DNA of 64,000 bases from contig CAZIQF010000005.1 of the NCBI GenBank assembly GCA_964541525.1, positions 5,114-69,113 of the forward strand, given 5' to 3'. Source of the stretch: an uncultured Staphylococcaceae bacterium. Its GTDB lineage: Bacteria > Bacillota_I > Bacilli_A > ML615J-28 > CAG-313. The notes under the pieces were generated by a model, which saw nothing but the letters and a program-made list of their open reading frames with translations, did no database searches and was not told the DNA's origin. The position numbers and the translations under genes are program-made. Below are positions 14,663-54,259 of the stretch, in pieces (position 1 is the stretch's first letter; each line of letters opens with the position of its first letter).

Positions 14663-14951
14663 TTATTGTATCAAGATTATCTTTAATAATTAATTTTTTA
14701 TAAATTATTTTATTTGACAAATTATTCAGCAATCATCAAATTGATCAACTAAAATAACAGCAACTTATCGGACAAAAATTTTATTTTATGTTATAATGAT
14801 AATTGAAGTTAAGATAAAGATCGTATAAAATCGATAATAAGGATCGATTGTATCTACCATATCACCTTAAATGATATGACTACGATTAATTATAAAGCTT
14901 TGTTTGTTTATAATTTTTCGTTTTTATGATATTTATCTAATATCTAAAATT

Positions 14952-34737: not shown

Positions 34738-35331
34738 ATGGATATCAGAAGAAATAATGATGGTTGGATTGAAGTAATCTGTGGAAGTATGTTTGCTGGT
34801 AAAACCGAAGAACTAATTAGAAGAATTAATCGAATCAAATATGCGAAAAAAACAATTGTTGTCTTTAAACCCAAGATTGATAATCGTTATGATGATATTC
34901 AAGTTGTTTCTCACTCTAATTTAAGAGTTGATGCCATCCCGATTTCAACCGCTAAAGAAGCCTGTGGTTACTTAACAACTTTACCATATGCAGTAGCTTT
35001 TGATGAAGTTCAATTCTTTGAACAAGATATTGTCGATTTATGTGAACGTCTGGCTAATTCCGGAGTTAGAGTTATCTGTGCTGGTCTTGATTTAGACTTT
35101 AGAGGTGAACCATTTGGAATAATGCCAGAATTATTATGTCGTGCTGAATTTGTTACTAAATTAAATGCGATTTGTACTGTTTGTGGTGCACCAGCAACGA
35201 GAACACAAAGAATCATTAATGGTCGTCCTGCTGATTATGAAGATCCAATTATTCTCGTTAGTGCTCATGAAAAGTATGAAGCGAGATGTCGTTTCTGTCA
35301 TCAAGTTCCTCATAAAAATTACCATGAATAA
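34738..35331 (+). CDS. tdk: Thymidine kinase
   Basis: [15 protein letters not shown]-loop and C-terminal zinc ribbon CTVCG...CRFCH. Promoter TTGTCG-17-TATAAT upstream. Confidence 0.9.
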
Positions 35332-35794
35332 TCATCAAGATGAATATTTTATGACTCTTGCATTAAAAGAAGCTAGGAAAGCATACATTAAAAAAGAAGT
35401 GCCAGTAGGTTGTGTAATTGTACTTAATGGTGAAGTGATTGCTAGAGCTCATAATCAAAGACATAAAAACAAATCAGTATTTGATCATGCTGAGATAATC
35501 GCTATTAAAAAGGCAAATAAAAAATTAAATAGTTGGATGTTAGATGAGGCAATTATGTATGTAACTTTAGAACCATGTTTAATGTGTGCTGGAGCAATTA
35601 TCCAATCACGAATTAAAAGAATTGTATATGCTGCGACTGAACCGAAATTTGGTGTATTCGGTAGCGTACTTAATCTAAAAGATCATATGCATAAATTCAA
35701 TCATCAATTAGAAGTTACCCCTTTAATTATGAAAGAAGAGTCATCAACGCTGCTTAAAACCTTTTTTAAAGAAATTAGAAACACTAAGTCCTAA
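35324..35794 (+). CDS. tadA: tRNA-specific adenosine deaminase
   Basis: HAE (DHAEIIAIK) and PCLMCAGAI zinc-ligand motifs. Start ATG overlaps the tdk stop (ATGAATAA). The ORF-track upstream extension was ignored. Confidence 0.9.
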
Positions 35795-35809
35795 ATTAAG
35801 AATAATAAT

Positions 35810-35838
35810 TTGACATTTGTTATAAAATATATTATAAT
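35810..35838 (+). promoter_or_regulatory. Consensus sigma-A promoter (TTGACA-17-TATAAT) driving the SRP RNA
   Basis: TTGACA at 35810-35815, exact 17 bp spacer, TATAAT at 35833-35838. Confidence 0.7.
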
Positions 35839-35844
35839 ATTACT

Positions 35845-35962
35845 AGATCTTATTTTAAGTACCTTCATCCAAGGCTCCATAGCGAACCAGGTCAGATCGT
35901 GATTGAAGCAGCCTTAAACTTTTTGTAGCTTGTGGGTGGGGGGACTTAAGATAAGATCTTTT
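35845..35962 (+). ncRNA. ffs: Small (4.5S-type) signal recognition particle RNA
   Basis: Terminal helix AGATCTTATTTTAAGT / ACTTAAGATAAGATCT. Internal ACCAGGTCAG..GAAGCAGCC matches the conserved SRP domain IV motif. Ends in a T-run. Lies immediately downstream of tadA, as scr does in Bacillus. Confidence 0.75.
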
Positions 35963-38173: not shown

Positions 38174-39157
38174 ATGAAAATCGGAAAAGTTGAAACAAGG
38201 AATAATGTAATCTTAGCCCCAATGGCTGGCGTTACAACTGCAGCATTTAGAACACTGGCTTTAGAACATGGAGCAGGAATGGTTTATGCCGAAATGGTTA
38301 GTGATAAAGGTCTTGCATATGCGAACAATAAAACTCTAGAAATGATTGAAGTCGATGCTAAAGAACATCCAATTGCGATGCAAGTGTTTGGTTCTAGTCC
38401 CGATACTATTTTAGAAGCAGCAAAACTGATTGAATCGCGTTCGCAAGCAGATATTATTGATGTTAATATGGGATGTCCAGTCCAAAAAATTATTAAAGCG
38501 GGATCGGGATCAGCCTTACTAAAAAACCCAGATAAGATTTATGAAATTGTTAAAACTTTAGTTGATAATATTAGCCTACCCGTAACCGTTAAAATTAGAG
38601 CGGGATATGATCATTCATCGATCAATTGTGATAAGGTCAGTAAATTAATCGAACAAGCCGGAGCGAAAGCGATTTGTATTCATGGTAGAACCAGATCAGA
38701 TATGTATAATGGTAGTGCCAATTTAGATTATATTAAAATGGTCAAAGAAGCAGTATCAATTCCGGTTATTGGTAATGGTGACATCAAAGATGTTACCTCA
38801 GCTCTTAAGATGAAAAATGAAACGGGATGTGATGCGTTAATGATTGGCCGTGCAGCTTGTGGTAATCCTTGGATTTTTGAAGAAATCAACACCTTTTTAA
38901 CGACCGGAGAAATAATTGAAAGACCAACTAAACAAGCAATAATTGAAACAATGTTAGAACATACCAAAAGATTGATTACTCTAAAAGGTGAACATGTCGC
39001 TTTAGTTGAAATGCGAACTCATGCTGCTTGGTATTTAAAACAATTAATTGGAACTAAGAATTATCGTCAACAAGTTGTATCGGTATCAAGCTTTGAAGCA
39101 TTAGAAAGACTCGCAGTAGAAATTATTAATAATGACTTGATATATGTAAAACGATAG
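38174..39157 (+). CDS. dusB: tRNA dihydrouridine synthase
   Basis: LAPMAGVTT..FR, DINMGCP and the TIM-barrel FMN pattern. Terminator at about 39160-39180. Confidence 0.9.
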   Translation: MKIGKVETRNNVILAPMAGVTTAAFRTLALEHGAGMVYAEMVSDKGLAYANNKTLEMIEVDAKEHPIAMQVFGSSPDTILEAAKLIESRSQADIIDVNMGCPVQKIIKAGSGSALLKNPDKIYEIVKTLVDNISLPVTVKIRAGYDHSSINCDKVSKLIEQAGAKAICIHGRTRSDMYNGSANLDYIKMVKEAVSIPVIGNGDIKDVTSALKMKNETGCDALMIGRAACGNPWIFEEINTFLTTGEIIERPTKQAIIETMLEHTKRLITLKGEHVALVEMRTHAAWYLKQLIGTKNYRQQVVSVSSFEALERLAVEIINNDLIYVKR

Positions 39158-39961: not shown

Positions 39962-41239
39962 CTATTTAATTTCATATTCTTGGTATAAGTTATATAAGTA
40001 TTCACTTAAGGTTACAACCACCTTGATGCCTTCATTTAAATATTCAGTACTACTAATATGGGCTTTTTCTTTTAAGACATTATAGATTTCTCCTTTGGTA
40101 TAAGGAAGCATTAAACTAACTGTTAAGTCTTTAAATAATATACTTTCAATATATGTTAGTAGTTCATCAATTCCTTCAAGCGTGCGATTGGATATTTTAA
40201 GCATTGGTTGATATTCGGTAGGAATGAAAATCAAATTTTTGACTAAATCAACTTTATTATATGCATAAACAATCGGAATATCGCTACAACCTAATTTCTT
40301 TAATACTTCATTGGTTGTTTCAATTTGCCATTTCATATATGGACTTGAAGCATCAATTAAATGAACAATTAGTGAACTTTCGGTAATTTCTTCTAAAGTT
40401 GATTTAAAAGATTCAACTAAATGATGGGGCAATTTATTGACAAAACCAACTGTATCTGTGATTAAAAATTCATGATTATTAGCCAGTTTAATTCTTCTTG
40501 TGGAAGTATCTAGGGTTGCAAAAAGCATATCTTTAACGAATACTTCCTTTTCAACATCGCTACCAGCACATCTTAATAAGCTATTAATCGTTGAAGACTT
40601 TCCAGCATTAGTATAGCCAACAAATGATACAACTAAAGTATTAGTTTTCTTTCGCATTTTTCTCGCAGTTTGGCGATCTAAGCTAATTGCATATAAATCG
40701 CTTTTTAATTTATCAATGCGTTTTTCAATAATTCGACGGTCTAACTCTAATTTAGTTTCACCGGCTCCTCTTCTCGCACCAGCACCACCACTAGCGCCAC
40801 CACCAGTTCTTGAAAGGTTTTTTCTCGCACCGACTAATCTTGGTAACATATAGTTAAGATGAGCTAATTCAACTTGTAATGTTGCCTCTTTGGTCCGAGC
40901 TCTTGTTTTAAAAATTTCTAAAATTAGCATTGTTCGATCCATGATTTCACATTCTATTACATCAGCTAAATTAGCTAATTGAGCAGGAGTTAATTCATCA
41001 TTAAAGATAACTAAATCAACATCTTTAATTTCGACCATCTCTTTAATTTCGAAGACTTTACCACTACCAACATAAGTAGCGTTATTAAATGAAGGTAAGT
41101 TTTGGGTAATCACTGCGACACATTCCATCATACATGCCTCACAAAGTGCCGAAAGTTCTTTCATTTCATAATTAAAAAATTCTTCATTTTTTGTACATAC
41201 ACCAACAATAATCGCTTTTCTAGTTATCATTTCTTCCAT
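39962..41239 (-). CDS. hflX: GTPase HflX
   Basis: HflX N-domain (AIIVGV..), G1 GYTNAGKSS, G3 DTVGF, G4 NKVD. Start at the ATG after RBS GGAGGTG. Confidence 0.85.
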   Translation of the reverse strand: MEEMITRKAIIVGVCTKNEEFFNYEMKELSALCEACMMECVAVITQNLPSFNNATYVGSGKVFEIKEMVEIKDVDLVIFNDELTPAQLANLADVIECEIMDRTMLILEIFKTRARTKEATLQVELAHLNYMLPRLVGARKNLSRTGGGASGGAGARRGAGETKLELDRRIIEKRIDKLKSDLYAISLDRQTARKMRKKTNTLVVSFVGYTNAGKSSTINSLLRCAGSDVEKEVFVKDMLFATLDTSTRRIKLANNHEFLITDTVGFVNKLPHHLVESFKSTLEEITESSLIVHLIDASSPYMKWQIETTNEVLKKLGCSDIPIVYAYNKVDLVKNLIFIPTEYQPMLKISNRTLEGIDELLTYIESILFKDLTVSLMLPYTKGEIYNVLKEKAHISSTEYLNEGIKVVVTLSEYLYNLYQEYEIK

Positions 41240-41349
41240 ATAATAACACCTCCACATTACTAGTATATCACAAAAGGACTTAATTTATAATAATTTAACA
41301 ATACCTTTCATATACTTAACTATAGGTAATGAAGAAAGGAAGAAAAATA

Positions 41350-43284
41350 ATGTTGGAAACATTTAGTACTAAAGCCGTTCAATTAATTGATGAGGCTAAA
41401 CAATTATCGAAAGAAATGTCTGAAGTATCAGGTACTATAGTTGAGGTCACTACCTATCATTTATTATTATCAATGTTTCTTGCGAATGATACGATTTGTC
41501 ATTTTTTGTTGAAAGAAGAAAATAAAACATTGGATGATATAGTTAATGCGAGAAATAAAATCACTTACACCGAAGAACTAGGAACCGTTTTTACAAAAGA
41601 ATTTGAAGCCATTGTCGCTTTAGCTAGTAGAATAGCCTTAAAAGTTGAATCGGAATATGTCTATGATGAACACTTATTTTATGCAATTTTAGAACATCAA
41701 GATAATCTAGCAGTTAAAGTAATTAATGAATTAAATCTAAATATTGATTTATTGAAACAAGACATTGAAGATATTTTTAATTTTTATCAAACAGAAATTA
41801 TTTATCAGCCCCAAAAAGAAGAACAACTAAAATATTTAATCTGTTTAAGCGATATAAAACACATTCATCCCTATATTACAAGAAGTACCTATATTGAACA
41901 AATGATTTATATTTTAAATAAACGACAAAAGAATAACCCTTTATTAATTGGTTCAGCAGGAGTTGGTAAAACCGCTCTAGTTGAAGGTTTAACTAAATAT
42001 ATCAGTGAAAAGATTTATGAATTAGATTTAGGGGGGATGATCGCCGGTACTAAATATCGAGGTGAAATGGAAGAAAAAATTATTAATGCAATAGAATATG
42101 TCAGCAAGAATAATGGAATTTTATTTATTGATGAAATTCACAATATCGTTGGTGCGGGATCAAATGATGGTAGTTTAGATTTAGCTAATCTTTTAAAACC
42201 ATATTTATCAAAAGGTGTAATTAAAATTATTGCAGCAACGACTTTAGATGAATATTATCAATATATGGATAAAGATAAAGCTTTGACCAGAAGATTTCAA
42301 AATATTTTTATTGATGAACCAACTAAAGAAGAAACCGTTACAATCTTAAAAGGAATTAAAACTAAATATGAAGAATACTATCATACTGTAATCAGTGATG
42401 AATTAATTGAATATATTGTCAAACAAACAGATGATAATTTGTTAAACAAAAAATTCCCGGATAAAGCAATTGATGTGCTAGACGAAACCTTTTCCAGATA
42501 TCGTCTAAAACAAGAAGATTTGAAAAAGTTAGTTCTAAAAGTAATTGAAAATATTAATGGAATCAAATTACCAACTAAAGAAGAAATCCAAACAATGAAG
42601 TTAAATTATGAAGAATTAGTCCCATTTTATTTACGTAAATTATATCCTCTAACTAATGTTAAAAATTTAGGCATTATTAAAGTTAATCATAATTTTAAAA
42701 TTAATCTCCTTTTAAATGATTTAAATCAAGTTTTCAATTTCAAGAAAGAAATGTTATTAACAATTGATGCAAATGACTATCAAACGATTGAATCAATTAA
42801 TAATTTAACCGGATCATCAAAAGGTTATGTTGGATATGAACAAGGTGGTTTACTCTATAATCATATTTTAAAGTATCCGATTAGTTTGATTTATCTTAAA
42901 AACTTTAATCAATCTGTGCCTAGTTTTAAAGTCTTTTTTAAAGACTTATTTAAAAAAGATTATATTATGGATGCTCATATGCGAATGATTTATTTGAAAA
43001 ATACGTTATTTATTGTTCAAGATATAGATAAGCAAATAACGGTTGGATTTGTTAATCAACAAAATCGTCAAAATAAATATTATGATTATTATCTAAAAAA
43101 ACAAATAACAATGGAAAATTTAGAGATAGATACGTATCTTTTAAAAAAAGGAATTATTATTGAAGGTTTAAAACATTTAAGTGAACAAGAACAACTTAAC
43201 TTATTTTATCAAGCGATTACTAAACCAATGGGAAAATATAAAGTAAAATTAGAACAAGAAACAATTGTGCTAGAACAGGTATGA
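41350..43284 (+). CDS. ClpC-like AAA+ protein: Clp_N repeats and intact D1 ATPase, but a catalytically dead D2 that retains the VGF ClpP-docking loop
   Basis: D1 has Walker A LLIGSAGVGKTALVEGL, Walker B ILFIDEIHNIV, and an arginine-finger region TTLDEY..ALTRRFQ. D2 aligns (GSSKGYVGYEQGG like GSPPGYVGYEEGG; VGFVNQQ like VGFNVQD) but lacks a GKT P-loop. Its Walker B DEIE is replaced by KNFN and sensor-1 N by D. Confidence 0.75.
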   Translation: MLETFSTKAVQLIDEAKQLSKEMSEVSGTIVEVTTYHLLLSMFLANDTICHFLLKEENKTLDDIVNARNKITYTEELGTVFTKEFEAIVALASRIALKVESEYVYDEHLFYAILEHQDNLAVKVINELNLNIDLLKQDIEDIFNFYQTEIIYQPQKEEQLKYLICLSDIKHIHPYITRSTYIEQMIYILNKRQKNNPLLIGSAGVGKTALVEGLTKYISEKIYELDLGGMIAGTKYRGEMEEKIINAIEYVSKNNGILFIDEIHNIVGAGSNDGSLDLANLLKPYLSKGVIKIIAATTLDEYYQYMDKDKALTRRFQNIFIDEPTKEETVTILKGIKTKYEEYYHTVISDELIEYIVKQTDDNLLNKKFPDKAIDVLDETFSRYRLKQEDLKKLVLKVIENINGIKLPTKEEIQTMKLNYEELVPFYLRKLYPLTNVKNLGIIKVNHNFKINLLLNDLNQVFNFKKEMLLTIDANDYQTIESINNLTGSSKGYVGYEQGGLLYNHILKYPISLIYLKNFNQSVPSFKVFFKDLFKKDYIMDAHMRMIYLKNTLFIVQDIDKQITVGFVNQQNRQNKYYDYYLKKQITMENLEIDTYLLKKGIIIEGLKHLSEQEQLNLFYQAITKPMGKYKVKLEQETIVLEQV

Positions 43285-43530
43285 TGACAATATAATGATA
43301 TTGAACTTATATTTTTTGATATAAGTTCTTTTTAATTTTGGCTTAAGTATTGATACAATAATATCATCAACAAACTTTAATCTCTTTATTTAGTTTATTA
43401 TTTTTTAGTTGATAGGGATTAATTTATTCACATCGATTAAATGATTATAAAAATAAAAAACTATATTTTAATATTTTTTTTGTTTGATGTGTTATAATAA
43501 ATATAAGTAGTATGTTTAATGAGGTGGACA

Positions 43531-46500
43531 ATGAAAAGAAGCGAAAATAAAACTTACCACATTCAATCCATAAATAAACATTTAGTTAATATATTAGAAG
43601 AAAATTATTATATCGAACTTGGTAATGTTGACTTACATATTATTGAAGCGATTTTAATTGGACAAACAGTAAATTTTAATCAAATGTTTGATTATAATAT
43701 CTTAACTAAAGGTATTGGCAAAATTATTGATGAAACAGATGATGCTCATTTTCAATTTAATTATTTATATGAACTTCATCAAAAATCATCATCATCGAAA
43801 TTCGTTTTAACATGTGGAACAATTAGATATTTAGATAAAACTGGGGTTGAAACATACGCACCGATAGTATTAATCCCACTTAGTTTAGATTATCTTAATA
43901 TGGAATTTGTAATTAATAGTTCACCAAAAATTAATAGTGTTTTTATTCGATTACTTAAAAGAAACTATCGAAAAGAAAAAGATCTATTAGAACAAAAAAA
44001 ACAAGAAGTGGTTCAAGAAGAAGCGATTAATTCAGTCACAGAACAGATCAATAATATCAATAATCTAATTCATAATCTTGATATTATCGAAGAAACTAAA
44101 CTTTCTAGTGTTTATGAAATTGATATGTTATGCAAACGATTAAGTGAACTAACATCATTAACCATTGATACAACTAATTACTTAACGGTTGTGGAAGTTG
44201 AGTATCCCGATTATATTGATAAAAAAGGGTTATTTGGTATTCAACGTTCAATCTATGAAATGAATGATATTGAACTATTAAACCAATATTTTTTAACTAC
44301 TCATGGGATTTTGACTAGTAATATTGAACAAAAATATATTACACTAAAGGCGCATCAAGGTGAATCATTTGTTGTTGATGGTCGTCTTGGTTCGGGTAAA
44401 ACGCAAACTGTAATTAATATTATTGGTGATTTTTTATTTGAAGCTAAAAGAGTTTTGTATGTTAACCATGATTTAGATAACATTAATGATTTTAGAAGAA
44501 AGATTAAATTTTTAGGTCTTGGTAGTTATCTATATGATTTAACTAAAAATGTTAGTGATATTGATAATGAAACCGAATTAGAAGTTAAAAAATATGGTAA
44601 ATTTAATTTTAATAAGATTAATGATCTTGCATCATATCGTAATATATATGATTATAAGTTTCATGGTTATCCCTATAGTTATATCCTAGAAAAAATTGCG
44701 ATTCGTAAAGCAAGACAAATTCAAAATAATGTCGTTTTAGAAGAAAACTTAGACCGCGAAGAAGTTGAATATATCTATAAAGCATTAAAACAAATAGAAT
44801 ATGAATTACAATTTATTGATCCATTACCAGATAATGTTTGGGGATCATTATCATCAGCAAAAAATGCTCCCGATGTATCAGAGATTATTGAACGAACTAA
44901 TAACTTGTTAGAACAAACGAAAAAATTACTTAAACTATTAAGCAAAATTGAAACAAAATATCATTTAGAAGAAATTGATTCTATATCCAATTTTCATCGT
45001 TTAATTGAACAAATGATCAGTTTTGTCAGTGTTAGACCTATCCTTAAATGGATTGAAACTGATTTTTATGAAAAATCACATCAAGCGTTAGCCGAAATTA
45101 ATAATGATATTGATATCCATTATAGTTGTACGACATTCTATAAACAACATTGCCCAGATGACTATCTTCCTGGCAGTATTAGTGAGGCTTTTAAAACAAT
45201 TATCCATAAACATTATGATATTAAAAATGCTTATAGTGCTGATTGTGTATATGTCAATGAATTATTATCATCATTTGATCAGTTATGTGCGCTTGTTGAT
45301 CAAATTAAAAAATGGGTTAAAGACTCAATAAATTGTTATGATTTATTAAAGAAGTATTTTAATTATGATACACCTAATCGAAATCAATTTATTTTATTTA
45401 ATAAGCTACTTAGTTTACTTCAAACTTATGAAATTGATGATGTATGGTTCTTAGAGTTTGTTGAAAACCCCAAAGAAATGATAAAAAAATCAATTACACT
45501 AAGTGAAGAATTTAAACAATTACAGACTTTGAGGGAATCACTTTTACCATATCTAACGTTTAATGAACTTATTTTTGTTAATGTAGAAGAAATTGTTAAT
45601 CATAAACGTTTTACCCGCATTTTAAAGAAACATCTTAATCAGCCTAAAATTAAACAAGATGGTTTAAGTGTAAATACCATTTGTTCTCGATTTAAAGCCT
45701 ACTATGAACAATGCTTATTGATTAAAAATGAACTACCAAAGCAAACATCATTTAATCAATTTGATGAACAAATTTGGAATGCTTATTTGAATTTTCTAAT
45801 TTTTGTCAGCAAATTAACATCATTTGAAACTAATAGTTTAGTTTATTTATTTAAGAATGGTTTAAATCAAAAGGGTGGATCAAAAGAACAATTAATTAGT
45901 AATTTACATCGCTTAAGAGAAAATCAAAAAGAATTAGAAATTATTGAACATCATTTAGGTAAATATAATATTGCAATAGCAGGGGATAATTTCTTAGAAT
46001 CGGTTTATTTTATTAAAAGTAATCTTAATTACTTAGACAAAGTAATTGATGCGATAAAGAAAATTCAAAATAGTTTTATTGATAGTAGGAATTTAAAAAC
46101 GACAGATATCTTAACTTTAATCGAAATTGATAATCAACACTTATTAGTACTCGACCGAATGGAAAAAAATAGTGATCGTTATGAACAATTGTTTGGTTCA
46201 GCATTTAAAAAATTTGCGACTCTAACATCAGAAATTACGCAATCAATTGAACGCTTTATGGAATTTATGAAACGTTTTAAAACTACTGATACAATAACTC
46301 AACAAGAACTACTTACGGTGCTCCTAGCTGAGAAACCATTTACGGATTTTTTAGATAATATTGGTTTGTTTACGAATAGTCATAGTGAATGGTTTAGTGC
46401 CTTAAGAGACTTTTCGACTTGTTTCTTTGGCGGAAAGATGGGGCTTCAAAATAGCACCTTTAAAGAGATTATTGCGTTATTAAAAGTTCATGTCAAAAAG

Positions 46501-47889
46501 ATTGATCAAGTCGAACATGTATATATCATTGAACATATTTTGGATACATTCTATCGTTATAAATTAGAAGATTTACCAAAAGGCATTCAATCAGGGAAAT
46601 ACGCAACAGGGATTGCTGAGGCATATCTTTATTCAACAATGTGTAAATATTACCACGATATGAAAGAACAAGGTTATATCCAATTTGATTTAGACGTTAT
46701 GAAAAAAACGGCAATAGCTTTTGATGAAGAAGAAAGTAAATACGCTGAAACCAATTTATTTAATTTAAGACATCATCATCATCGCTTTGGAAATAAGCAA
46801 AATAAAGATTTAAATGCTAAAGTTCTTGCGAATAAATCACTACCAAATAATAAAGGTTTATTTGTTAGTGATGTTGATGTTTTTAACAATATTGAAGATT
46901 TAAGTTATTTTGACTTGGTCATTATTGATGATGCTCATTTATCAACAGCTAATAAATATGCGAATATCTTAAATGCAAGGCAAGTCATTGTTTTTGGTGA
47001 CCGAATGTTCCAAACCTCAGTAACTAATACTTTAATGCAACGGGTTAAGAGTAGTAGAGTTGTGCCATTACGCAAACGTTATATCAAAATGAGAAACGAT
47101 TTTGGCAATATGTGGCAAGTAGATAATCAATTTATTTATTCACCACAACTACCATTAAATATAAGTGGCTATAATAGCTTAGAAGAAATGGTAATTGAAG
47201 TTGTCAAACAGTTTAAATTATATAAAGATACCCTTGATAAACGTACCTTCAATATTATTGTTGGATCTTCAGTTACTCGTAGAGAAGTTTACCGCATTTT
47301 AATTAACACCTTAAAACAAGAATATTCCACTGATGAAATAGTAATGATTGCCGATGATTTAATTAGAATTATTGCAGTAAATGGTGAATCAGCAAGGATT
47401 GCTTCGGAAGTGTATTTATGGTATGATGATATTGTTATGTATGATCAAATGGCTAAAGATTTAATTAAGCGAAATTATATTACTTCAAGCAAAAAAATAA
47501 ATCTTTGTTATCAACTAGTTAAAAATCCTAAACAAAATGAAGATATGCTTCAATCAATTAACGATTTCGTTGGTAATCATCTTGTCATAACTAATAATAC
47601 TGAGGGAATTGCGAAAATCATCTGTGAAGAATTAACTAAAAAAGGTATTGATATTGAACTAGGATATGGACATTTAGATTTAGTAATCAAAACGCAAGCG
47701 AAAAATATTGGGATTATGCTTTATGGTAAGCGAATTAATAATAGTTATTCAATGGTGGATGATTATTTATACTTTGTTAAAGAATACCAAAGAAATGGTT
47801 GGGAAATTAAACAATATTCAATGGAAGCAATTGCTGAATCACTAGATAATGTTCTAACTGATATTATTAATACAGTTAATAAAGGATAA
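43531..47889 (+). CDS. Giant (1452 aa) SF1-helicase-like P-loop NTPase with a ~840-aa helical insert between Walker A and motifs II/III
   Basis: Walker A VVDGRLGSGKTQTVINII at about aa 290. DLVIIDDAHLS (motif II-like) and VIVFGDRMFQ (motif III-like) at about aa 1130-1165. No clear motifs IV-VI. Own promoter TGTTATAAT. RBS GAGGTGG. Confidence 0.8.
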   Translation: MKRSENKTYHIQSINKHLVNILEENYYIELGNVDLHIIEAILIGQTVNFNQMFDYNILTKGIGKIIDETDDAHFQFNYLYELHQKSSSSKFVLTCGTIRYLDKTGVETYAPIVLIPLSLDYLNMEFVINSSPKINSVFIRLLKRNYRKEKDLLEQKKQEVVQEEAINSVTEQINNINNLIHNLDIIEETKLSSVYEIDMLCKRLSELTSLTIDTTNYLTVVEVEYPDYIDKKGLFGIQRSIYEMNDIELLNQYFLTTHGILTSNIEQKYITLKAHQGESFVVDGRLGSGKTQTVINIIGDFLFEAKRVLYVNHDLDNINDFRRKIKFLGLGSYLYDLTKNVSDIDNETELEVKKYGKFNFNKINDLASYRNIYDYKFHGYPYSYILEKIAIRKARQIQNNVVLEENLDREEVEYIYKALKQIEYELQFIDPLPDNVWGSLSSAKNAPDVSEIIERTNNLLEQTKKLLKLLSKIETKYHLEEIDSISNFHRLIEQMISFVSVRPILKWIETDFYEKSHQALAEINNDIDIHYSCTTFYKQHCPDDYLPGSISEAFKTIIHKHYDIKNAYSADCVYVNELLSSFDQLCALVDQIKKWVKDSINCYDLLKKYFNYDTPNRNQFILFNKLLSLLQTYEIDDVWFLEFVENPKEMIKKSITLSEEFKQLQTLRESLLPYLTFNELIFVNVEEIVNHKRFTRILKKHLNQPKIKQDGLSVNTICSRFKAYYEQCLLIKNELPKQTSFNQFDEQIWNAYLNFLIFVSKLTSFETNSLVYLFKNGLNQKGGSKEQLISNLHRLRENQKELEIIEHHLGKYNIAIAGDNFLESVYFIKSNLNYLDKVIDAIKKIQNSFIDSRNLKTTDILTLIEIDNQHLLVLDRMEKNSDRYEQLFGSAFKKFATLTSEITQSIERFMEFMKRFKTTDTITQQELLTVLLAEKPFTDFLDNIGLFTNSHSEWFSALRDFSTCFFGGKMGLQNSTFKEIIALLKVHVKKIDQVEHVYIIEHILDTFYRYKLEDLPKGIQSGKYATGIAEAYLYSTMCKYYHDMKEQGYIQFDLDVMKKTAIAFDEEESKYAETNLFNLRHHHHRFGNKQNKDLNAKVLANKSLPNNKGLFVSDVDVFNNIEDLSYFDLVIIDDAHLSTANKYANILNARQVIVFGDRMFQTSVTNTLMQRVKSSRVVPLRKRYIKMRNDFGNMWQVDNQFIYSPQLPLNISGYNSLEEMVIEVVKQFKLYKDTLDKRTFNIIVGSSVTRREVYRILINTLKQEYSTDEIVMIADDLIRIIAVNGESARIASEVYLWYDDIVMYDQMAKDLIKRNYITSSKKINLCYQLVKNPKQNEDMLQSINDFVGNHLVITNNTEGIAKIICEELTKKGIDIELGYGHLDLVIKTQAKNIGIMLYGKRINNSYSMVDDYLYFVKEYQRNGWEIKQYSMEAIAESLDNVLTDIINTVNKG

Positions 47890-47893
47890 GATT

Positions 47894-48400
47894 ATGCCAA
47901 GTAACAAAACAATGTTAATCTCGATTATTCATGAATTAAAAGAAAATGCTAATCATCTTGCGAAAATCAAGACCTTAATTAGGTTAAATCTTGCTAATGG
48001 TTTTGATCTTAATACCAAGTATATCAAAGGAAGAACCCTTGGACACTATATTGTTAAATATAATATTACCGGTTTAATTGGGTTTGTCTCTAAATTAGGT
48101 TTAAATTTAGATATATGTGATGATAATTATGATACACCATTACATATTGCAGTAAAAAACAATCGTTTAAATTTAATTAAAGAACTAATCAAGGCCGGTG
48201 TTGACATTAATATGGCAGCTGAATTTGAAGCAACTCCACTCCATTTAGCAGTCTCAGAAGGACACCTAGATATTGCCAAACTATTAATTAAGTCTGGAGC
48301 TGATGTATCACTAGTTGATGAACACAATTTAACAGCTCTAGATTACGCAATTGATGAAAAAAATGAGCAAATGATTAATTTACTCAAAAATAAAAAATAA
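47894..48400 (+). CDS. Ankyrin-repeat protein (about 4 ANK repeats)
   Basis: DTPLHIAVKNNRLNLIKELIKAGVDIN and ATPLHLAVSEGHLDIAKLLIKSGADV are canonical ANK repeats. Starts 4 nt after the giant gene. Confidence 0.85.
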   Translation: MPSNKTMLISIIHELKENANHLAKIKTLIRLNLANGFDLNTKYIKGRTLGHYIVKYNITGLIGFVSKLGLNLDICDDNYDTPLHIAVKNNRLNLIKELIKAGVDINMAAEFEATPLHLAVSEGHLDIAKLLIKSGADVSLVDEHNLTALDYAIDEKNEQMINLLKNKK

Positions 48401-48418
48401 AAAGAAAGAAGGGAAAAT

Positions 48419-49216
48419 ATGATTGAACAGTATTTAGAAATGATCGGTTATACCGGTGAATATCGTTATATTATTTTTGCGATAGATCTAATCTTATCCT
48501 TAGGATTATTTACAGTTCTTTCAATAATGTTATATAAGAAGTTAAAACGAAAAACGGTTTTTTTAGTAGCAGCTAGTTATTTTATTGTATCAACAATTAC
48601 TACGATTTTAGATTTACAATTAGTTAAACTAGCCCTAATAACAACATTAGCGATTGTTTGTGTTGGTGCTTTAGTGATTGGTAATTTTGAACAAAAGAAT
48701 GGGGCTAAACCTCATCAACAACAAACAACAAACAAAGAAAATAAAAATTTCGTTTCCAATCAAGATGCGAAAGCGGCTTTAATTGAGACATTAGTCACAA
48801 CAGTTGAATATCTTTCATCTAGAAAAATTGGTGCGATTATTACCATTGAAAAAGAAAATAGTTTAAATCTATATATTAACAAAGCCGTAATTATTGATGC
48901 TGAAGTATCTTGTGAATTGCTTAAAACGATTTTCTTCCCAAACACCGCTTTACATGATGGAGCTGTTATTATTAGAGGAAACCGCATTATGTGTGCTGGT
49001 GTTTACTATAATCACTTAGCTGATAAAGAAGGATTAGGTGAACTAGGAACTCGCCATCGGGCGGCAATTGGAATTAGTGAAGAAACTGATGCTTTCACCC
49101 TTGTTGTATCAGAACAAACAGGAATTATTTCAACAACAATTGGGGGAACGATCACCAGAGAATTAAATGATCAAGAATTAAGAGTTTCACTTAATCAACA
49201 CATTATCGTTCAATAA
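48419..49216 (+). CDS. cdaA: Membrane-anchored diadenylate cyclase (c-di-AMP synthase), CdaA type
   Basis: Three N-terminal transmembrane helices. DAC domain motifs IGAIITIE, HDGAVII, LGTRHRAAIGISEETDA, VVSEQTGIIS. Confidence 0.9.
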   Translation: MIEQYLEMIGYTGEYRYIIFAIDLILSLGLFTVLSIMLYKKLKRKTVFLVAASYFIVSTITTILDLQLVKLALITTLAIVCVGALVIGNFEQKNGAKPHQQQTTNKENKNFVSNQDAKAALIETLVTTVEYLSSRKIGAIITIEKENSLNLYINKAVIIDAEVSCELLKTIFFPNTALHDGAVIIRGNRIMCAGVYYNHLADKEGLGELGTRHRAAIGISEETDAFTLVVSEQTGIISTTIGGTITRELNDQELRVSLNQHIIVQ

Positions 49217-49228
49217 TAGGTGGCAAAG

Positions 49229-50446
49229 ATGAACCTATTATCAATGAGTAAAAGTTTAGCCATTTACCAAATGGTTAATAAATATGAAATTGTGCTATAT
49301 GCAATCTTATTTGGAGCCTTAGTCTTAACAATAATCAGCAAATCGATTATTAGCCGTAAAGTTGACTTTATTACGATTATTTTACTAATTATTCTCATAG
49401 CCATTATCTTTATTCCCGCTATAAATCTATCCTTATTTTACTTATTGATGATTTTATCGTATATCTATCTTTGTTTAATTAATGTCGATTTATATCTAAA
49501 ATTCATCTTTAAACAAACCCGAAATAAAAAGTTGTTAGAACATATAAAAAATGATACAACTGATTATTACTTGAGTTTAGATTTAAAAAACAAAATCTTA
49601 GATTATAGTGGTTCATTATTAAATTTAACGAAATTAACGGATAAACAAATTAGAAAAAGTAAGAGTTGGGAATTATTATTTAAACATTTGAATGTCGTAA
49701 AACTAAATAATGAAGTATATGGTAAAGAAGTTTTAGCTAATTTTATTTTAAGTTTAGAAAAAGTCGTAAGTAAATACAAACTATATCAATTTGATATCGA
49801 AGTAAAAAACGAAGAAATCACTAAATATAATTGTTTTATTCAAGCCATTTACTATAAAAACTTAAAAATTGGTCTAAATGTATATATCTATAGTGATAAA
49901 ATGCAAGTATTAACAAGATTAAAAGAAAATTTAGATGTGACATTAACTTCACTATATAATTATAAAAAAAGTTTACATATTTTAATGTCCCTTCAAGAAG
50001 GCATGGCACTATATTTTGACTATCAAGAAAAACTTTATTACGCAACTGAAAGTTTTAAAAACTTCATGAACAATAATAAAACAACATATACTTTCCAAGA
50101 AATATATGAAATGATTGCTGATGATGACAAAGACAGTTATGTTGAAGAAAGTAGAAACATCAATAATCTAAATATTAACCGCATTAAGTTTAAACTTTTA
50201 TTAAAAGATGAAGTATATTTCGCAATTGAAGATTCAATTAATTTATCTACTGATGATAATGAATTGGTATCAGTGATTAAAATTTTAGGTCTTGCATCTA
50301 AAGTAGATAGTAGTCCAATTCTATCAACTCAACAAACAATTGATCTAATGAAAGAATTCGCTCAAACACCAGTAACGCCAATTGTTTATGAAATTGAAGA
50401 ATTATTAAATAGTGTTTTAGAAAAAGAGGAAAAAGATGAAAAGTAG
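49229..50446 (+). CDS. Membrane protein of unknown function in the CdaR/YacL position
   Basis: 2-3 N-terminal transmembrane helices, then about 300 aa of mixed alpha/beta sequence. No YbbR, PIN or TRAM signature recognised. ATG after RBS AGGTGG. Confidence 0.6.
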   Translation: MNLLSMSKSLAIYQMVNKYEIVLYAILFGALVLTIISKSIISRKVDFITIILLIILIAIIFIPAINLSLFYLLMILSYIYLCLINVDLYLKFIFKQTRNKKLLEHIKNDTTDYYLSLDLKNKILDYSGSLLNLTKLTDKQIRKSKSWELLFKHLNVVKLNNEVYGKEVLANFILSLEKVVSKYKLYQFDIEVKNEEITKYNCFIQAIYYKNLKIGLNVYIYSDKMQVLTRLKENLDVTLTSLYNYKKSLHILMSLQEGMALYFDYQEKLYYATESFKNFMNNNKTTYTFQEIYEMIADDDKDSYVEESRNINNLNINRIKFKLLLKDEVYFAIEDSINLSTDDNELVSVIKILGLASKVDSSPILSTQQTIDLMKEFAQTPVTPIVYEIEELLNSVLEKEEKDEK

Positions 50447-51551
50447 TTTTGTTTTATTGATGGGTGGAGTAGGTAGTAGAACAAATTTAACTATCAATAA
50501 AACCCTATTAGAAATTGCCGAAAAGCCCATTTTCCTATATAGTTTAGAAACAGCAATTCAATCACATTTTGATGAATATATCTTAGTCATTAAAAAAACT
50601 GAATTAGAAATCATCAAAACATATTTAACAAAATTTCAATTACAAGATCAAGTCAAAATTACATATGGTGGGGCGACTAGAGGTGAAAGTGTAAAAAATG
50701 GGTTAAAAGCCGTAACTACGGATATTGTATATTTTCATGATGCAGCGAGACCACTGGTAACTAAACAAGACTTAGACGCTCTAAAGGAAGCAGCAGACAA
50801 CTATAACTGTGGAACTTTATATCATCTAATTCCTGATACTTTAAAAAGAATCAAACCAAATGTTATAACCATTGATCGTAATAATATTTATGCAGTAAGC
50901 ACACCACAGTTTTTTAAAAAAGCCCTTTATCCAACTATTTTAAATAATCAGCAAGATATTACGGATGAGATTAGTTTATTTGAACAAACTGAACCAATTG
51001 GTTTTGTTAAGGAAAGTTCGAATAATATGAAATTCACAACCATTCAAGACTTAGATTATTTAAAATACCAATTAAATAAAAAAGCAACCTATATTGGTCA
51101 CTCATTAGATTATCACCCTTTTTCAGATCATGGCACTTTAATTTTAGGAGGAGAACTAATAGAAGGTTATCCAATTTTAGAAGGTCATAGTGATGCCGAT
51201 GTGATCTTACATGTTGTAACTGAGGCGATTATGGGTGCAGCATTATTGGGAGACTTAGGAACATTATTTCCGGATAACGATCCTAAATATAAGGGAATTG
51301 CCTCATCTAAATTATTAGCGGAGGTAGTTAGAAGAATTCAAGATTTGGGCTATGAAATAGTTAATATCGATATTACTGCTTATTTAATCAAACCTAACTT
51401 GAAAAATTATAAATTAAAAATGGCAGATAATATTAAGAAATTAACTAATACAACGCACGTTAATGTTAAAGCAGCAACTTTAAATAAACGTGGATTAATC
51501 GCTTTAGAAGCAGGCATTGGTGCGGAAGCAGTCGTATTACTAAAAAAATAA
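50436..51551 (+). CDS. ispDF: Bifunctional IspD/IspF (MEP cytidylyltransferase / MEcPP synthase) fusion
   Basis: N-terminal LMGGVGSR (IspD) and C-terminal GHSDADVILH..GDLG..FP (IspF) in a single 371-aa frame. Confidence 0.85.
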   Translation: MKSSFVLLMGGVGSRTNLTINKTLLEIAEKPIFLYSLETAIQSHFDEYILVIKKTELEIIKTYLTKFQLQDQVKITYGGATRGESVKNGLKAVTTDIVYFHDAARPLVTKQDLDALKEAADNYNCGTLYHLIPDTLKRIKPNVITIDRNNIYAVSTPQFFKKALYPTILNNQQDITDEISLFEQTEPIGFVKESSNNMKFTTIQDLDYLKYQLNKKATYIGHSLDYHPFSDHGTLILGGELIEGYPILEGHSDADVILHVVTEAIMGAALLGDLGTLFPDNDPKYKGIASSKLLAEVVRRIQDLGYEIVNIDITAYLIKPNLKNYKLKMADNIKKLTNTTHVNVKAATLNKRGLIALEAGIGAEAVVLLKK

Positions 51552-51597
51552 ATAATTTGATCTCATAATTAATAAAATATTATGAGGTCTTTTTTAT

Positions 51598-52218
51598 ATG
51601 AAAAAATTAAAAACATTAATTATTATGATATTACTATTATTAATCCCTTTAACGATTATCTCTTCACTAGATAATTATTTTAGTGAAAGAACAGAAGAAT
51701 ACCTAGAACACGCAGTAACCTTCGCTGCATCAGATATCTTTTCTAATGCATCATTAGAAGTAGCTGATTTTGCAGCAGACACACCATTTTTAAAATATAG
51801 TTATGATGAAAATAATCAAATAACAGGAGTATATGTTGATACAATCACCGTTAACTTGATTTTAACTAAAGTATCACAATTAATTTCAACTTCACTCAGT
51901 AATGGGGCTATTGAAGAAAAACTTGGATCAGTCCCAATCCCCTTAGGACAATTTATCTCCAAATCGATTTTTGCCAATGCAGGTCCAGATATTATTATTA
52001 AGACGTCACCAATGTACTCATATACAACCGATTTATATACTACAACTACAGACTATGGCATTAATAATACATTATTAGAGGTATATATCCTAGCTGTAAT
52101 TAATATTGAAGCATTTATTCCTTTAATTAGTCAAAATATATCTTTAGAAACTAAAATTTACTTAATTTCTGAAGTACTACAAGGAAGTATTCCTGTTTAT
52201 TATTTTTCAGCATCATGA
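51598..52218 (+). CDS. Membrane-anchored protein, possibly YunB-family sporulation protein
   Basis: N-terminal transmembrane helix, 206 aa. Assignment by size and topology only. Confidence 0.35.
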   Translation: MKKLKTLIIMILLLLIPLTIISSLDNYFSERTEEYLEHAVTFAASDIFSNASLEVADFAADTPFLKYSYDENNQITGVYVDTITVNLILTKVSQLISTSLSNGAIEEKLGSVPIPLGQFISKSIFANAGPDIIIKTSPMYSYTTDLYTTTTDYGINNTLLEVYILAVINIEAFIPLISQNISLETKIYLISEVLQGSIPVYYFSAS

Positions 52219-52823
52219 AATAAACACAAATAAAATCATAGATTAGATTAATTATTTGACAATAAAATTTTCGTATATTAAAATCTATCACGAAGGGTAT
52301 GTAAGATATTTGGATTTAGGGGAAGTGATAGAATACTATTTATATTTTTTGCTATTTCACAAAATATTCAAAAATGATTAAATGTCTGTTAATTATAACA
52401 AAAAATGGATATAAAAAATTAATTTAAGAGTAGCTATAGCAACATCTATAATAATTGTTGCTATATTCATAAATGAAATAGATACTAGAAATTTAATTAA
52501 TATAAAATATGCAGCAATAGATAAAGAGTGAATGTAATCATGATTTTTAAATGTTGCTAAAAAATTGAAGGAAAAGTGTCTTTTTTTAATGCTATTAAAT
52601 AGGTGATTCTTTATCAATTGACTTACTTGAAAATGATTCTGTTTTATTGTATAATGATAGTGTTACTAGTTTAATCAAAAAGGAAATTGAAGAACTAGAT
52701 GAAGAAGAAACTACATATGAAGTTGAGGATTTTCATACTTATGATGTGGTTTTGAAGAAAATATAGTCGCTAAAGTTCAAACAAATAATAGAACTAATAA
52801 AAATATAGTAAGAGGTTAACAAT

Positions 52824-53779
52824 ATGAATAAACAATTTGATGTGATTACATTTAATGATCAAGATATATGTTTAGAAGTTAATTTTGATCAAGAAAATGA
52901 TACAGTATGGTTATCTCAAAAACAAATGTCTGAGTTATTTGATGTTTCTACTGACAATATTGGTTTACATATTAAAAATATTCTTTCTTCAGGAGAGTTA
53001 GATCTAACAACTATCGAGGAATACTCGGTTGTTCAACAAGAAGGGAATCGTAAAGTAAAAAGAAAAATTAAGTTTTATAATCTTGACATGATAATTTCTG
53101 TTGGATATCGTGTTAATTCTAAAAAAGGCATTTTATTTAGAAAATGGGCTAGTAATATTTTGAAGCAATATTTATTTGATGGATATGTTGTAAACGAAAA
53201 AAGATTAGCTTATTTAGAAAAACAAATTAATTTAATATCTATTGCTTCAAGATTAGATGAGAAATTAATAACTGATGAAGGAAATAAAATATTAGAAACA
53301 ATAATTAATTATAATAAAGCTCTAAGCTTACTAGATGATTATGATCATCAAATAATTAGTAAACCTGATGGAACATTAGGCTGTTATAAATTAACATATG
53401 AAGAATGTCGTAAAATAATTGATTCTATGAAATTTGAATCAACTATTTTTGGAGTAGAAAAAGATGGAAGTTTTAATTCTAGTATTAATGCGATATATCA
53501 AAGTGCATTTGGTGAAGATATATATATAAATCTATAGAAGAAAAATCAGCCAATTTATTATATTTCATAACCAAAAATCATTCATTTGTTGATGGTAATA
53601 AACGTATAGCAGCAAGTATCTTTTTATATTTTTTAGATAAGAACAATTTATTATATATTAATGGAAATAAAAGATTATCTGATTCAGCACTTGTAGCAAT
53701 AACTATATTGATTGCTGAAAGTAAGCCTGAAGAAAAAGAAATAATAATTGATTTAATAATGAATTTTTTAACTATGTAA
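52824..53779 (+). pseudogene. RhuM-family (Virulence_RhuM, Doc-like C-terminus) gene interrupted by a -1 frameshift
   Basis: N-terminal 237 aa are RhuM-like (..KIKFYNLDMIISVGYRVNSKKGILFRKWA..). After the stop at 53537, the +2 frame continues EEKSANLLYFITKNHSFVDGNKRIAASIFLYFL.. (Doc HxFxDGNKR motif) to 53779. The shift lies in the TATATATAAATC run at about 53525. Confidence 0.7.
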
Positions 53780-54013
53780 TACTATAAGGTAATATATAAA
53801 TAAAATCCAAACGAACAAAACTACAATCACATATAATTAGTAAGGAATAAGATGTAGAAAAGAAAAAAGATAGATATGTCATATTATTTGGCATATCTTT
53901 TTTGTAATATTTTGACTTTACAATTTTCAAAAAATAAAAATAAAACCAAATTACAACCATTTGTGAAAGAAATGTAGTATAATAGATATAGAATTAGAAA
54001 ACTGGAGGTCTAT

Positions 54014-54259
54014 ATGACAGAAACAGAAATTATTAAAGAAGTAAAAAAAGTAATTAAGAAATTACGGCCATATTTAAATCAAGATGGTGGCGACTTGGAT
54101 TTCGTTGATTTTCGTGATGGTATTGTCTATATCAAATTATTAGGAGCTTGTATTGGTTGTTCAAGTAGTGATGACACAATCAAAAATAGTATTGAAGCGA
54201 TGATGTTAGAAGAAGTACCAGGGGTTATTGGCGTTGAAAAAGTTGAGGAAGAACTATAA
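54014..54259 (+). CDS. NifU-like (Nfu-type) Fe-S cluster assembly protein
   Basis: 81 aa with a LGACIGCSSS CxxC motif. Confidence 0.8.
   Translation: MTETEIIKEVKKVIKKLRPYLNQDGGDLDFVDFRDGIVYIKLLGACIGCSSSDDTIKNSIEAMMLEEVPGVIGVEKVEEEL

Follow-up and report, generated by a model that had tools for sequence, protein, structure and literature searches.

A conserved gene trio for a DUF4011-related ATPase, an ankyrin-repeat protein and the diadenylate cyclase CdaA at the presumed radA-disA position of uncultured Bacilli

Introduction

In this study, we analysed a row of five genes in a 64,000-nucleotide (nt) stretch of DNA from an uncultured bacterium (contig CAZIQF010000005.1, GenBank assembly GCA_964541525.1); the whole stretch is called the window, and all coordinates refer to it. 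The row encodes a very large P-loop protein (hereafter the giant protein), an ankyrin-repeat protein, a diadenylate cyclase predicted to be of the CdaA type, a membrane protein and the bifunctional IspDF protein, and it follows a gene for a ClpC-like protein (Table 1). The genes for the giant protein, the ankyrin protein and CdaA form a trio that is obligate and exclusive in both directions in more than 100 independent loci while its surroundings change. All parts of the arrangement come from known superfamilies, and the association of the three is undescribed: literature searches combining ankyrin with c-di-AMP (cyclic di-AMP), diadenylate cyclase or CdaA found no combined report, in agreement with the original prediction, which was made from the DNA letters alone and had called the arrangement undescribed.

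In most Firmicutes, c-di-AMP is either essential or conditionally so, and the control of its synthesis is only partly understood. CdaA is known to be controlled by GlmM and CdaR, and DisA by RadA and DNA branches. A cyclase gene that is firmly bound to other partner genes is of interest for the regulation of this second messenger.

Results

Layout and boundaries of the predicted operon

The window has a G+C content (GC) of about 28%. The genes listed in the original prediction were all present, and ORF calls and family scans led only to small corrections of coordinates. The open reading frame (ORF) of the giant protein opens at 43519, and its start is placed at the ATG at 43531, in front of which lies a Shine-Dalgarno sequence (GAGGTGG); read from there, the protein has the predicted length and matches database protein P0001. 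For the membrane protein, the ATG at 49229 is the probable start, with AGGTGG 5 nt before it, giving a protein identical to P0068. The ankyrin gene begins 4 nt after the giant gene, as had been stated, cdaA follows after 18 nt instead of the 19 nt given before, the membrane protein gene after another 12 nt, and the latter overlaps ispDF by 11 nt. A purine-rich Shine-Dalgarno sequence is located at each of the four junctions.

Downstream of the ClpC-like gene, an AT-rich hairpin followed by a T-run was found (dG = -11.1 kcal/mol, z = -4.2 against shuffled sequences), which is likely an intrinsic terminator parting this gene from the operon; the consensus terminator scan did not call it, as it has too few G-C pairs. 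A second hairpin with T-run immediately 3′ of ispDF (dG = -12.1 kcal/mol, z = -4.4) is likely the intrinsic terminator closing the operon. The most economical reading of the sequence is therefore that the five genes from the giant gene to ispDF (43531-51551) would form a single transcription unit, with the ClpC-like gene outside. The scan for sigma-70 promoters was uninformative in DNA of 28% GC, with 90 sites found versus 103 expected; a TTGTTT...TGTTATAAT sequence upstream of 43531 was noted and no promoter was assigned. Rfam and tRNA scans detected neither a c-di-AMP (ydaO) riboswitch nor another RNA element in the operon. Family scans of the window for the proteins at issue found the DAC and Ank domains, and no RadA, DisA, YbbR/CdaR, GlmM or PIN/TRAM protein.

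Table 1. Features of the operon and of its surroundings in the window
Feature	Position	Strand	Basis or remark
YabQ	265-714	minus	
LysS	1175-2674		
TadA-like deaminase, then bacterial small signal recognition particle (SRP) RNA	35165-35951; SRP RNA 35856-35951		RF00169, 43.4 bits
Dus-family protein	38174-39157		
HflX	39962-41257	minus	divergent neighbour of ClpC-like gene
ClpC-like AAA+ protein, 651 amino acids (aa)	41329-43284	+	Pfam, NCBIfam, alignment to 3J3S
AT-rich hairpin and T-run 3′ of ClpC-like gene	43303-43333	+	RNA fold
Giant P-loop protein, 1452 aa	43531-47889	+	profile-profile alignment, motif conservation, AlphaFold2 (AF2), Foldseek
Ankyrin-repeat protein, 168 aa	47894-48400	+	Pfam Ank families
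CdaA-type diadenylate cyclase, 265 aa	48419-49216	+	PF02457, alignment to 4RV7
Membrane protein, 405 aa	49229-50446	+	AF2 model, Foldseek
Bifunctional IspDF, 371 aa, final gene of the unit	50436-51551	+	PF01128, PF02542, NF006899
Hairpin and T-run immediately 3′ of ispDF	51559-51595	+	RNA fold
YunB	51598-52218	+	

Conservation of the trio across loci

Conservation was followed from two anchor genes. In the survey anchored on the giant gene, one genome per species was used, which gave 31 loci, while the survey anchored on the ankyrin gene comprised 80 metagenome loci, which came from bioreactors, digesters and the gut of humans and animals. As far as the available sequence reaches, the order giant-ankyrin-cdaA was present in the 31 genome loci, in 4 deep-branching loci and in the 80 metagenome loci, with L071 as the only exception. 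Starting from the giant gene, the ankyrin gene and cdaA came next in 28/28 genome loci with downstream sequence. Starting from the ankyrin gene, the giant gene was directly upstream in all 73 informative loci (71 by hidden Markov model (HMM), two by BLASTP), and CdaA was encoded directly downstream in 71 of 72. The original prediction had asked whether the triplet co-occurs in related genomes, and L071 aside it does so in every informative locus from either anchor gene. The sequence of L071 (1-5304) is 99.4% identical to that of L063 up to position 1040, where the ankyrin gene ends, and is unrelated beyond; this locus probably reflects chimeric assembly or else a rearrangement at strain level. 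Both the giant and the ankyrin family were found in the trio context only.

Packing of the genes is similarly constant. Among the genome loci with downstream sequence, the median gap was -4 nt at the giant-ankyrin junction, 0 nt at the ankyrin-cdaA junction, 9.5 nt between cdaA and the membrane protein gene, and -15.5 nt between the latter and ispDF, and the junctions of the trio were at most 20 nt long or overlapping throughout the more than 100 loci. In every genome locus with downstream sequence, the order of all five genes was intact, even at 26-27% identity of the giant protein. In the four deep relatives, whose giant proteins are 18-24% identical, giant, ankyrin and DAC genes were retained, and downstream of them an MGS-like gene, a gene for a protein of about 520 aa with transmembrane (TM) helices and PAS domain, a gene for 5-formyltetrahydrofolate (5-formyl-THF, 5-FTHF) cyclo-ligase and separate ispD and ispF genes were found. 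Insertions between cdaA and the separate ispD and ispF genes were present in the deep-branching relatives L032, L035, L086, L093, L101, L103, L107, L111, L112 and L115 and code for an MGS-like protein of 117-129 aa, a TM protein of about 500-527 aa with PAS and degenerate GGDEF-like parts, and often a 5-formyl-THF cyclo-ligase. In the deep relative L033 (15932-18033), genes for sigma-70 region-4-like proteins and a holin-like protein after cdaA displace the usual downstream genes; this insertion looks like a prophage remnant. Because the flanks vary in this way, with different spacing of the ClpC-like gene, insertions, changing size of the protein in the membrane protein slot and inconstant IspDF fusion, selection appears to act on the trio and not on the whole block.

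The operon is vertically inherited in a lineage of uncultured low-GC Bacilli of gut and digesters. Database records label members of this lineage as Bacilli, Mollicutes or Acholeplasmatales, and it resembles the RF39, RFN20 and ML615J-28 groups. Such taxonomic labels of metagenome-assembled genomes (MAGs) are unreliable; for example, L008 and L011 are nearly identical and are labelled 'Prevotella sp.' and 'Anaeroplasma bactoclasticum'.

The giant protein as a diverged DUF4011-family ATPase

In the giant protein, Walker A (GRLGSGKT) is located at residues 284-291, and motifs reading IIDDAH and VIVFGD at residues 1131-1136 and 1152-1157, so that Walker A and motif II lie about 840 aa apart, as the original prediction had described. 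Direct scans gave matches below threshold only: for the NCBIfam equivalogs NF042953/NF058533 (Hhe/ProA), 70.6 bits versus a cutoff of 1500 for ProA (E = 5e-20) and 27 bits versus 2000 for Hhe (E = 7e-7), a sub-threshold hit to PADLOC PDC-S37 (E = 6e-17) and one below threshold to Pfam ResIII. No direct Pfam DUF4011 match was obtained with the giant protein of the window alone, and a sequence profile search of the PDB returned IGHMBP2 alone (E = 0.18). The family was therefore assigned by profile-profile alignment and structure.

A search for homologs retrieved full-length proteins of about 1410-1465 aa from MAGs of uncultured 'Bacilli bacterium' only, followed by a sharp fall to canonical DUF4011 helicases. 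With residues 1-1200 as query against 1.84 billion representatives, phmmer found 356 matches at E <= 1e-3, 38 of them at E <= 1e-30; among the 356 were about 70-80 full-length clusters of 1330-1500 aa, down to 21% identity, and past these the listing continued with ordinary DUF4011 proteins of 1500-2150 aa. This lineage restriction, together with the constant neighbours, rules out that the protein is a common family with unrelated neighbours, which the original prediction had named as the finding that would speak against it. In an hhalign comparison, 100 members of the giant family aligned to 11 canonical proteins of the architecture DUF4011-AAA_11-AAA_12-MTES_1575(-DUF3320) with 99.8% probability (E = 2e-30), collinearly over residues 9-1452. 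An N-terminal DUF4011 domain is present, as residues 9-317 align to the DUF4011 and Walker A region both of P0067 and of the 11 canonical members, and four members of the giant family (P0056, P0062, P0064 and P0098) pass PF13195 with 25.8-27.9 bits versus a cutoff of 22.2.

The predicted architecture starts with a DUF4011-like N-terminus, the Q motif and Walker A. An all-helical insert of about 750-840 aa separates these from motifs II, III and IV, after which come a degenerate 2A domain and, at the C-terminus, a Vsr/MTES_1575-like domain that lacks the catalytic Glu. In canonical P0067, Walker A is located at about residue 705 and motif II at about residue 1545, within the second AAA_11 part (1539-1588). 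Since canonical members have the same gap of about 840 residues, the insert is a trait of the family and no novelty of the giant protein. An AF2 model of residues 253-1452, based on an alignment of 52 sequences (mean predicted local distance difference test (pLDDT) score 87), consists of a RecA-like start, about 750 helical residues, further alpha/beta domains and a C-terminal alpha/beta domain. Foldseek grouped the core of this model with Upf1-like helicases of superfamily 1B (SF1B), matching IGHMBP2 (E = 7e-5), then Sen1, Upf1, SLFN11, Dna2, nsp13 and HelD.

Conservation of residues was determined as column statistics over 100 homologs. Q267 of the Q motif, G284, G289 and K290 of Walker A, D1133 and D1134 of motif II, and G1156 were invariant, residue 291 was T or S, and D1157 (92%) as well as R1183 (88%) and Y1184 (98%) of motif IV were strongly conserved. 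Conservation thus extends over the Q motif and motifs I to IV. Motif II reads DD, versus DE in canonical members. The regions aligned to motifs V and VI, where the alignment is of low confidence, have no QGxE or TRA signature and no conserved 'TRA' arginine. The C-terminal domain aligns to Vsr/MTES_1575 but does not qualify as an active PD-(D/E)xK nuclease domain: the motif 'IEcDG' has become I(I/M)IxG, with I or M at the position of the catalytic Glu, the Asp position after it is variable (E29, L19, Y18, I17 out of 100), and the sole kept residue of the nuclease motif is D1383 (91%). A DUF3320 domain is missing at the C-terminus, and the alignment to P0067 (2205 residues) accordingly reaches no further than its residue 1954.

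Sequence comparison and model together identify the giant protein as a fast-evolving, lineage-restricted offshoot of the DUF4011/Upf1-like SF1 helicase-nuclease family with no new fold. The original prediction was right in calling it an SF1-like NTPase without RadA features, and the missing RadA and Lon matches agree with this; it should not, however, be taken for an unclassifiable pseudo-helicase. With the DUF4011/DUF3320 helicase-nucleases (Pfam PF13195 with AAA_11, AAA_12 and MTES_1575, including Hhe, ProA and PDC-S37), it shares collinearity, the helical insert inside domain 1A and the SF1B core fold. It differs from them in its length of about 1450 aa versus 1500-2200 aa, in the absence of the DUF3320 tail, in DD for DE, in the degenerate motifs V/VI and in the loss of the catalytic Glu. 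Unlike other DUF4011 genes, it always precedes an ankyrin gene and cdaA at a housekeeping locus, and in the literature searched, no mention of DUF4011 in an ankyrin or cyclase context was found. The conservation pattern suggests that a nucleotide-binding site has been kept by selection, and the protein is unlikely to be a processive helicase-nuclease.

The ankyrin protein

Five Ank families of Pfam matched the ankyrin protein above their cutoffs (E = 1e-18 to 1e-21; Ank_2 E = 3e-21). About four ANK repeats of 33 residues with the TPLH motif come after an N-terminal helix, and the PDB profile matches of the protein are ankyrin and DARPins, down to 1e-117, in line with its DARPin-like size. With neither a signal peptide nor a transmembrane segment detected, it is predicted to be cytoplasmic. 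In 87 distinct homologs, the hairpin-tip residues E110, D142, E143, N145, D150, Y151, A152, D154 and E155 were conserved to at least 95%, so that the conserved tips are largely acidic. Hairpin-tip positions of ANK proteins usually vary with the binding target. Their conservation here thus implies that the ankyrin protein would have a conserved binding partner.

The CdaA-type cyclase

The cyclase matched PF02457 (DAC) with E = 4e-38 and TIGR00159 with 171.9 bits, slightly below the cutoff of 188.8. Three N-terminal transmembrane helices are followed by the DAC domain at the end of the protein, with the motifs HDGAVII and GTRHRAA (DGA and RHR), and this domain aligns to Listeria monocytogenes CdaA (4RV7) including the catalytic motifs. 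By these sequence features the protein is assigned to the CdaA (DacA) type, as had been predicted. DisA was considered and rejected as its identity, with 27 bits versus a cutoff of 201 for NF010009, three TM helices and an end directly after the DAC domain.

CdaA/DacA is inhibited by directly bound GlmM (PMC8573169, PMC6368335). With the cdaA-cdaR-glmM operon, the locus shares a CdaA with three TM helices and a gene for a membrane-anchored protein next to it. In the known operon GlmM binds the DAC domain, and in the window, which has no glmM in the operon, the cytoplasmic ankyrin protein encoded upstream may by analogy be the candidate partner. CdaR consists of one TM helix and extracytoplasmic YbbR domains, whereas its counterpart in the window has TM helices and a PAS-PAS unit that is probably cytoplasmic.

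The PAS membrane protein and IspDF

The membrane protein had no Pfam, NCBIfam or PADLOC match. In its AF2 model (pLDDT 71), N-terminal TM helices are followed by two PAS-like units with a long helix between them. Foldseek matched the LOV-PAS structures 6PH4 and 6PPS at E = 1e-8 and HIF/ARNT PAS-A/B pairs at 1e-5, and the best 50 fold matches were all PAS-domain proteins. According to the model, the protein is composed of three TM helices and a tandem PAS-PAS unit with no output domain, and by the positive-inside rule the PAS domains are probably cytoplasmic. Two identities were rejected: YacL, since there is no PIN/TRAM match and a PAS fold instead, which agrees with the predicted lack of relation to YacL, and CdaR, since PF07949 (YbbR) did not match and the model shows TM helices with PAS-PAS. 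The counterparts encoded at this position in deeper lineages are 394-527 aa long and have N-terminal TM helices and sub-threshold PAS and GGDEF matches, the degenerate GGDEF reading 'GNIEY'. Intermediate HMM scores (176 bits, then 24-27 bits) link them to the family of the window protein, and the ortholog in L076 had a sub-threshold PAS_9 match (E = 4e-5).

IspDF matched PF01128 with residues 6-208 and PF02542 with residues 220-369 and thus has both parts of the bifunctional enzyme; TIGR00151 gave 128.6 versus a cutoff of 116.45, and NF006899 E = 1e-81 with 274.9 bits, below the cutoff of 417. The predicted fusion is therefore present in the window. As a constant feature of the locus it did not hold, because deep-branching relatives have separate ispD and ispF genes.

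The ClpC-like neighbour

Residues 88-397 of the ClpC-like protein align to residues 80-408 of B. subtilis (Bacillus subtilis) ClpC (3J3S), i.e. an N-domain repeat and D1, and the alignment resumes at residues 469-565 versus ClpC 563-658. N-domain, an intact D1 and the AAA lid are present. There is no M-domain and no D2 Walker A, as 72 residues stand for ClpC 408-563, and in the D2 Walker B DE is changed to KN, with 'LLDEIEK' reading 'YLKNFNQ'. The equivalog cutoffs of NCBIfam for ClpA, ClpB and ClpC were not reached. The original description as a ClpC derivative with a dead D2 is borne out by these data.

The gene does not belong to the unit. As an operon member it was rejected in view of the terminator-like hairpin with T-run in between and of its variable spacing and orientation in relatives, where its distance to the giant gene ranges from -4 nt to 3 kb and where it is inverted in three loci. 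With ClpC it has in common the N-domain, an active-looking D1, the AAA lid and the slot upstream of the radA position; it differs by the missing M-domain and D2 Walker A and the mutated D2 Walker B. Unlike in clpC loci, ctsR, mcsA and mcsB are absent upstream and hflX lies divergently instead, and the gene is predicted from its context not to be co-transcribed with the operon.

Position relative to the clpC-radA-disA-yacL-ispDF cluster

In B. subtilis, the origin-proximal genes include yabQ, tadA-scr, dusB and lysS, then ctsR-mcsA-mcsB-clpC-radA-disA-yacL-ispD-ispF. The presence of Dus, LysS, YabQ, TadA with SRP RNA, the ClpC-like gene and ispDF in the window supports the ancestral clpC-radA-disA-yacL-ispDF position, the adjacency of tadA and the SRP RNA being that of tadA-scr in B. 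subtilis. These genes back the positional argument of the original prediction for conserved order and slots and support the view that the place of radA and disA is here taken by the trio. The proposed replacement of radA and disA is true only in this positional sense. No protein of the region matched the RadA, Lon or ChlI families, and no in-frame KNRFG or RadA zinc-finger motif was found in 741 kb (window and local flanks of loci L001-L035).

In the known system of Bacillus and actinobacteria, radA and disA belong to one operon and their products show RadA-DisA interplay (PMC10804225; bioRxiv 10.1101/2022.06.29.498085). Both arrangements have the same site between clpC and ispD/ispF and a large ATPase gene directly upstream of the cyclase region. 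RadA is of the RecA/Lon type, in contrast to the SF1 Upf1-like giant protein; DisA is soluble with a helix-hairpin-helix (HhH) DNA-binding domain, in contrast to the membrane-bound CdaA without DNA-binding domain; and unlike at radA-disA, an ankyrin gene stands between ATPase and cyclase genes.

Further features of the window

As listed, the TadA ORF shares 167 nt with the thymidine kinase ORF (34738-35331), and the true start of the TadA ORF is probably further downstream. The sporulation-associated genes yabQ and yunB persist in this small-genome, low-GC lineage, which fits published predictions that sporulation genes are kept in part of the RF39, RFN20 and ML615J-28 groups (PMC10868615). 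Between yunB and the genes downstream of it, the region 52219-54258 has a low GC of about 23% and carries a RhuM-family gene (52824-53537); it looks like a small insertion, and relatives have different genes or none there. A purine riboswitch (RF00167, 82 bits) was detected at 14801-14902 upstream of ORF 15065-16366 (433 aa), which had no Pfam match at 1e-6; the next gene encodes a transporter of the CitMHS/ArsB type. At 2886-5618, a protein of 910 aa with a C-terminal Endonuclease I domain (PF04231) is encoded, which may be a large secreted or surface nuclease.

Discussion

We tentatively favour the reading, at a little short of an even chance, that the operon at the ancestral position encodes an ankyrin adaptor coupling the giant ATPase to CdaA, with the PAS protein as a second regulator. 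The ankyrin protein would physically link the giant ATPase to CdaA, and the nucleotide- or nucleic-acid-bound state of the giant protein would gate c-di-AMP synthesis, analogous to the action of RadA on DisA or of GlmM and CdaR on CdaA. The membrane protein with two PAS domains could act as a second, membrane-level regulator of CdaA in the place of CdaR, while ispDF would remain in the transcript as a relic of the ancestral order. This mechanism is preferred because of the tight packing, the obligate linkage of the trio, the selection on the ATP site, the conserved ankyrin surface and the known precedents. A further version, in which a whole lineage of Bacilli exchanged the RadA-DisA checkpoint for DNA integrity and c-di-AMP, at the same site, for a non-orthologous device of a nuclease-dead ATPase sensor, an ankyrin adaptor, CdaA and a second input through PAS, seems rather doubtful; if true, it would represent the first case of a bacterial second-messenger cyclase controlled through an ankyrin protein and the first housekeeping role assigned to a DUF4011 protein. 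Several points weigh against functional coupling. The operon also contains ispDF, whose link in function is not obvious, so that co-transcription alone is no proof of shared function, and reduced, slowly rearranging genomes can keep an inherited gene order without such coupling. The nucleic-acid-sensing role of the giant protein is extrapolated from family membership only. Finally, partial correlations in a mirror-tree analysis were weakest for the ankyrin protein with CdaA and with the giant protein (about 0.4 controlling for IspDF), an analysis that is confounded by shared phylogeny and protein length and was not used as evidence.

The operon may instead be a supra-operon inherited without coupling, in which the ancestral order was left unbroken in streamlined genomes and the giant and ankyrin proteins serve other functions, e.g. 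in RNA/DNA metabolism or protein quality control. IspDF and the MGS-like and 5-FTHF cyclo-ligase genes of the deep lineages have no evident link to c-di-AMP, conservation of the surrounding synteny (HflX, Dus, YunB) is fairly good as well, and the ancestral B. subtilis cluster is itself functionally mixed (PMC10804225). We nevertheless regard this as somewhat unlikely: flanking genes rearrange, invert, fuse and get replaced while the trio junctions stay tight in more than 100 loci, and the giant and ankyrin families occur nowhere but in the trio. Improbable in our view is a nucleic-acid machine formed by the giant and ankyrin proteins with a RadA-like role in recombination or repair, next to a CdaA that replaced DisA with no contact between ATPase and cyclase. 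The position corresponding to radA, the SF1B Upf1-like core fold and the lack of a RadA motif in the 741 kb would suit such a machine, but the degenerate motifs V/VI and nuclease site argue against a processive helicase-nuclease, and RadA is a RecA/Lon-type hexamer that is structurally dissimilar to the giant protein.

A domesticated anti-phage system with the cyclase as source of a nucleotide alarm signal was also considered. Defence systems include DUF4011 helicase-nucleases (Hhe, ProA, PDC-S37) as well as ankyrin proteins (PDC-M72A, MzaA), and the scans of the locus gave weak matches to ProA, Hhe, PDC-S37 and PDC-M72A. This reading appears highly improbable. The ProA and Hhe scores are far under their cutoffs, the giant protein has lost the nuclease catalytic Glu, the cyclase is by its sequence an ordinary membrane CdaA, and no effector gene is present in the locus. 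Moreover, the genes lie at a fixed, single, vertically inherited housekeeping site with host-like GC and uniform presence, and in Pseudomonas aeruginosa, too, a DUF4011 gene is core and non-mobile (PMC10250203).

The locus represents a natural experiment: over deep divergence, one lineage has kept its cyclase tied to an ankyrin protein and a helicase-like ATPase, at the site where relatives have radA-disA. If the favoured mechanism is true, the trio would define a new class of CdaA regulators. It would also offer a first functional handle, outside phage defence, on the large and uncharacterised family of DUF4011 helicases, and would add a rare case in which a cytoplasmic ankyrin protein of bacteria has a housekeeping partner. 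Members of the lineage are common in anaerobic digesters and in the guts of humans and animals. As the lineage is uncultured, hypotheses derived from genomes are the main route to its physiology.

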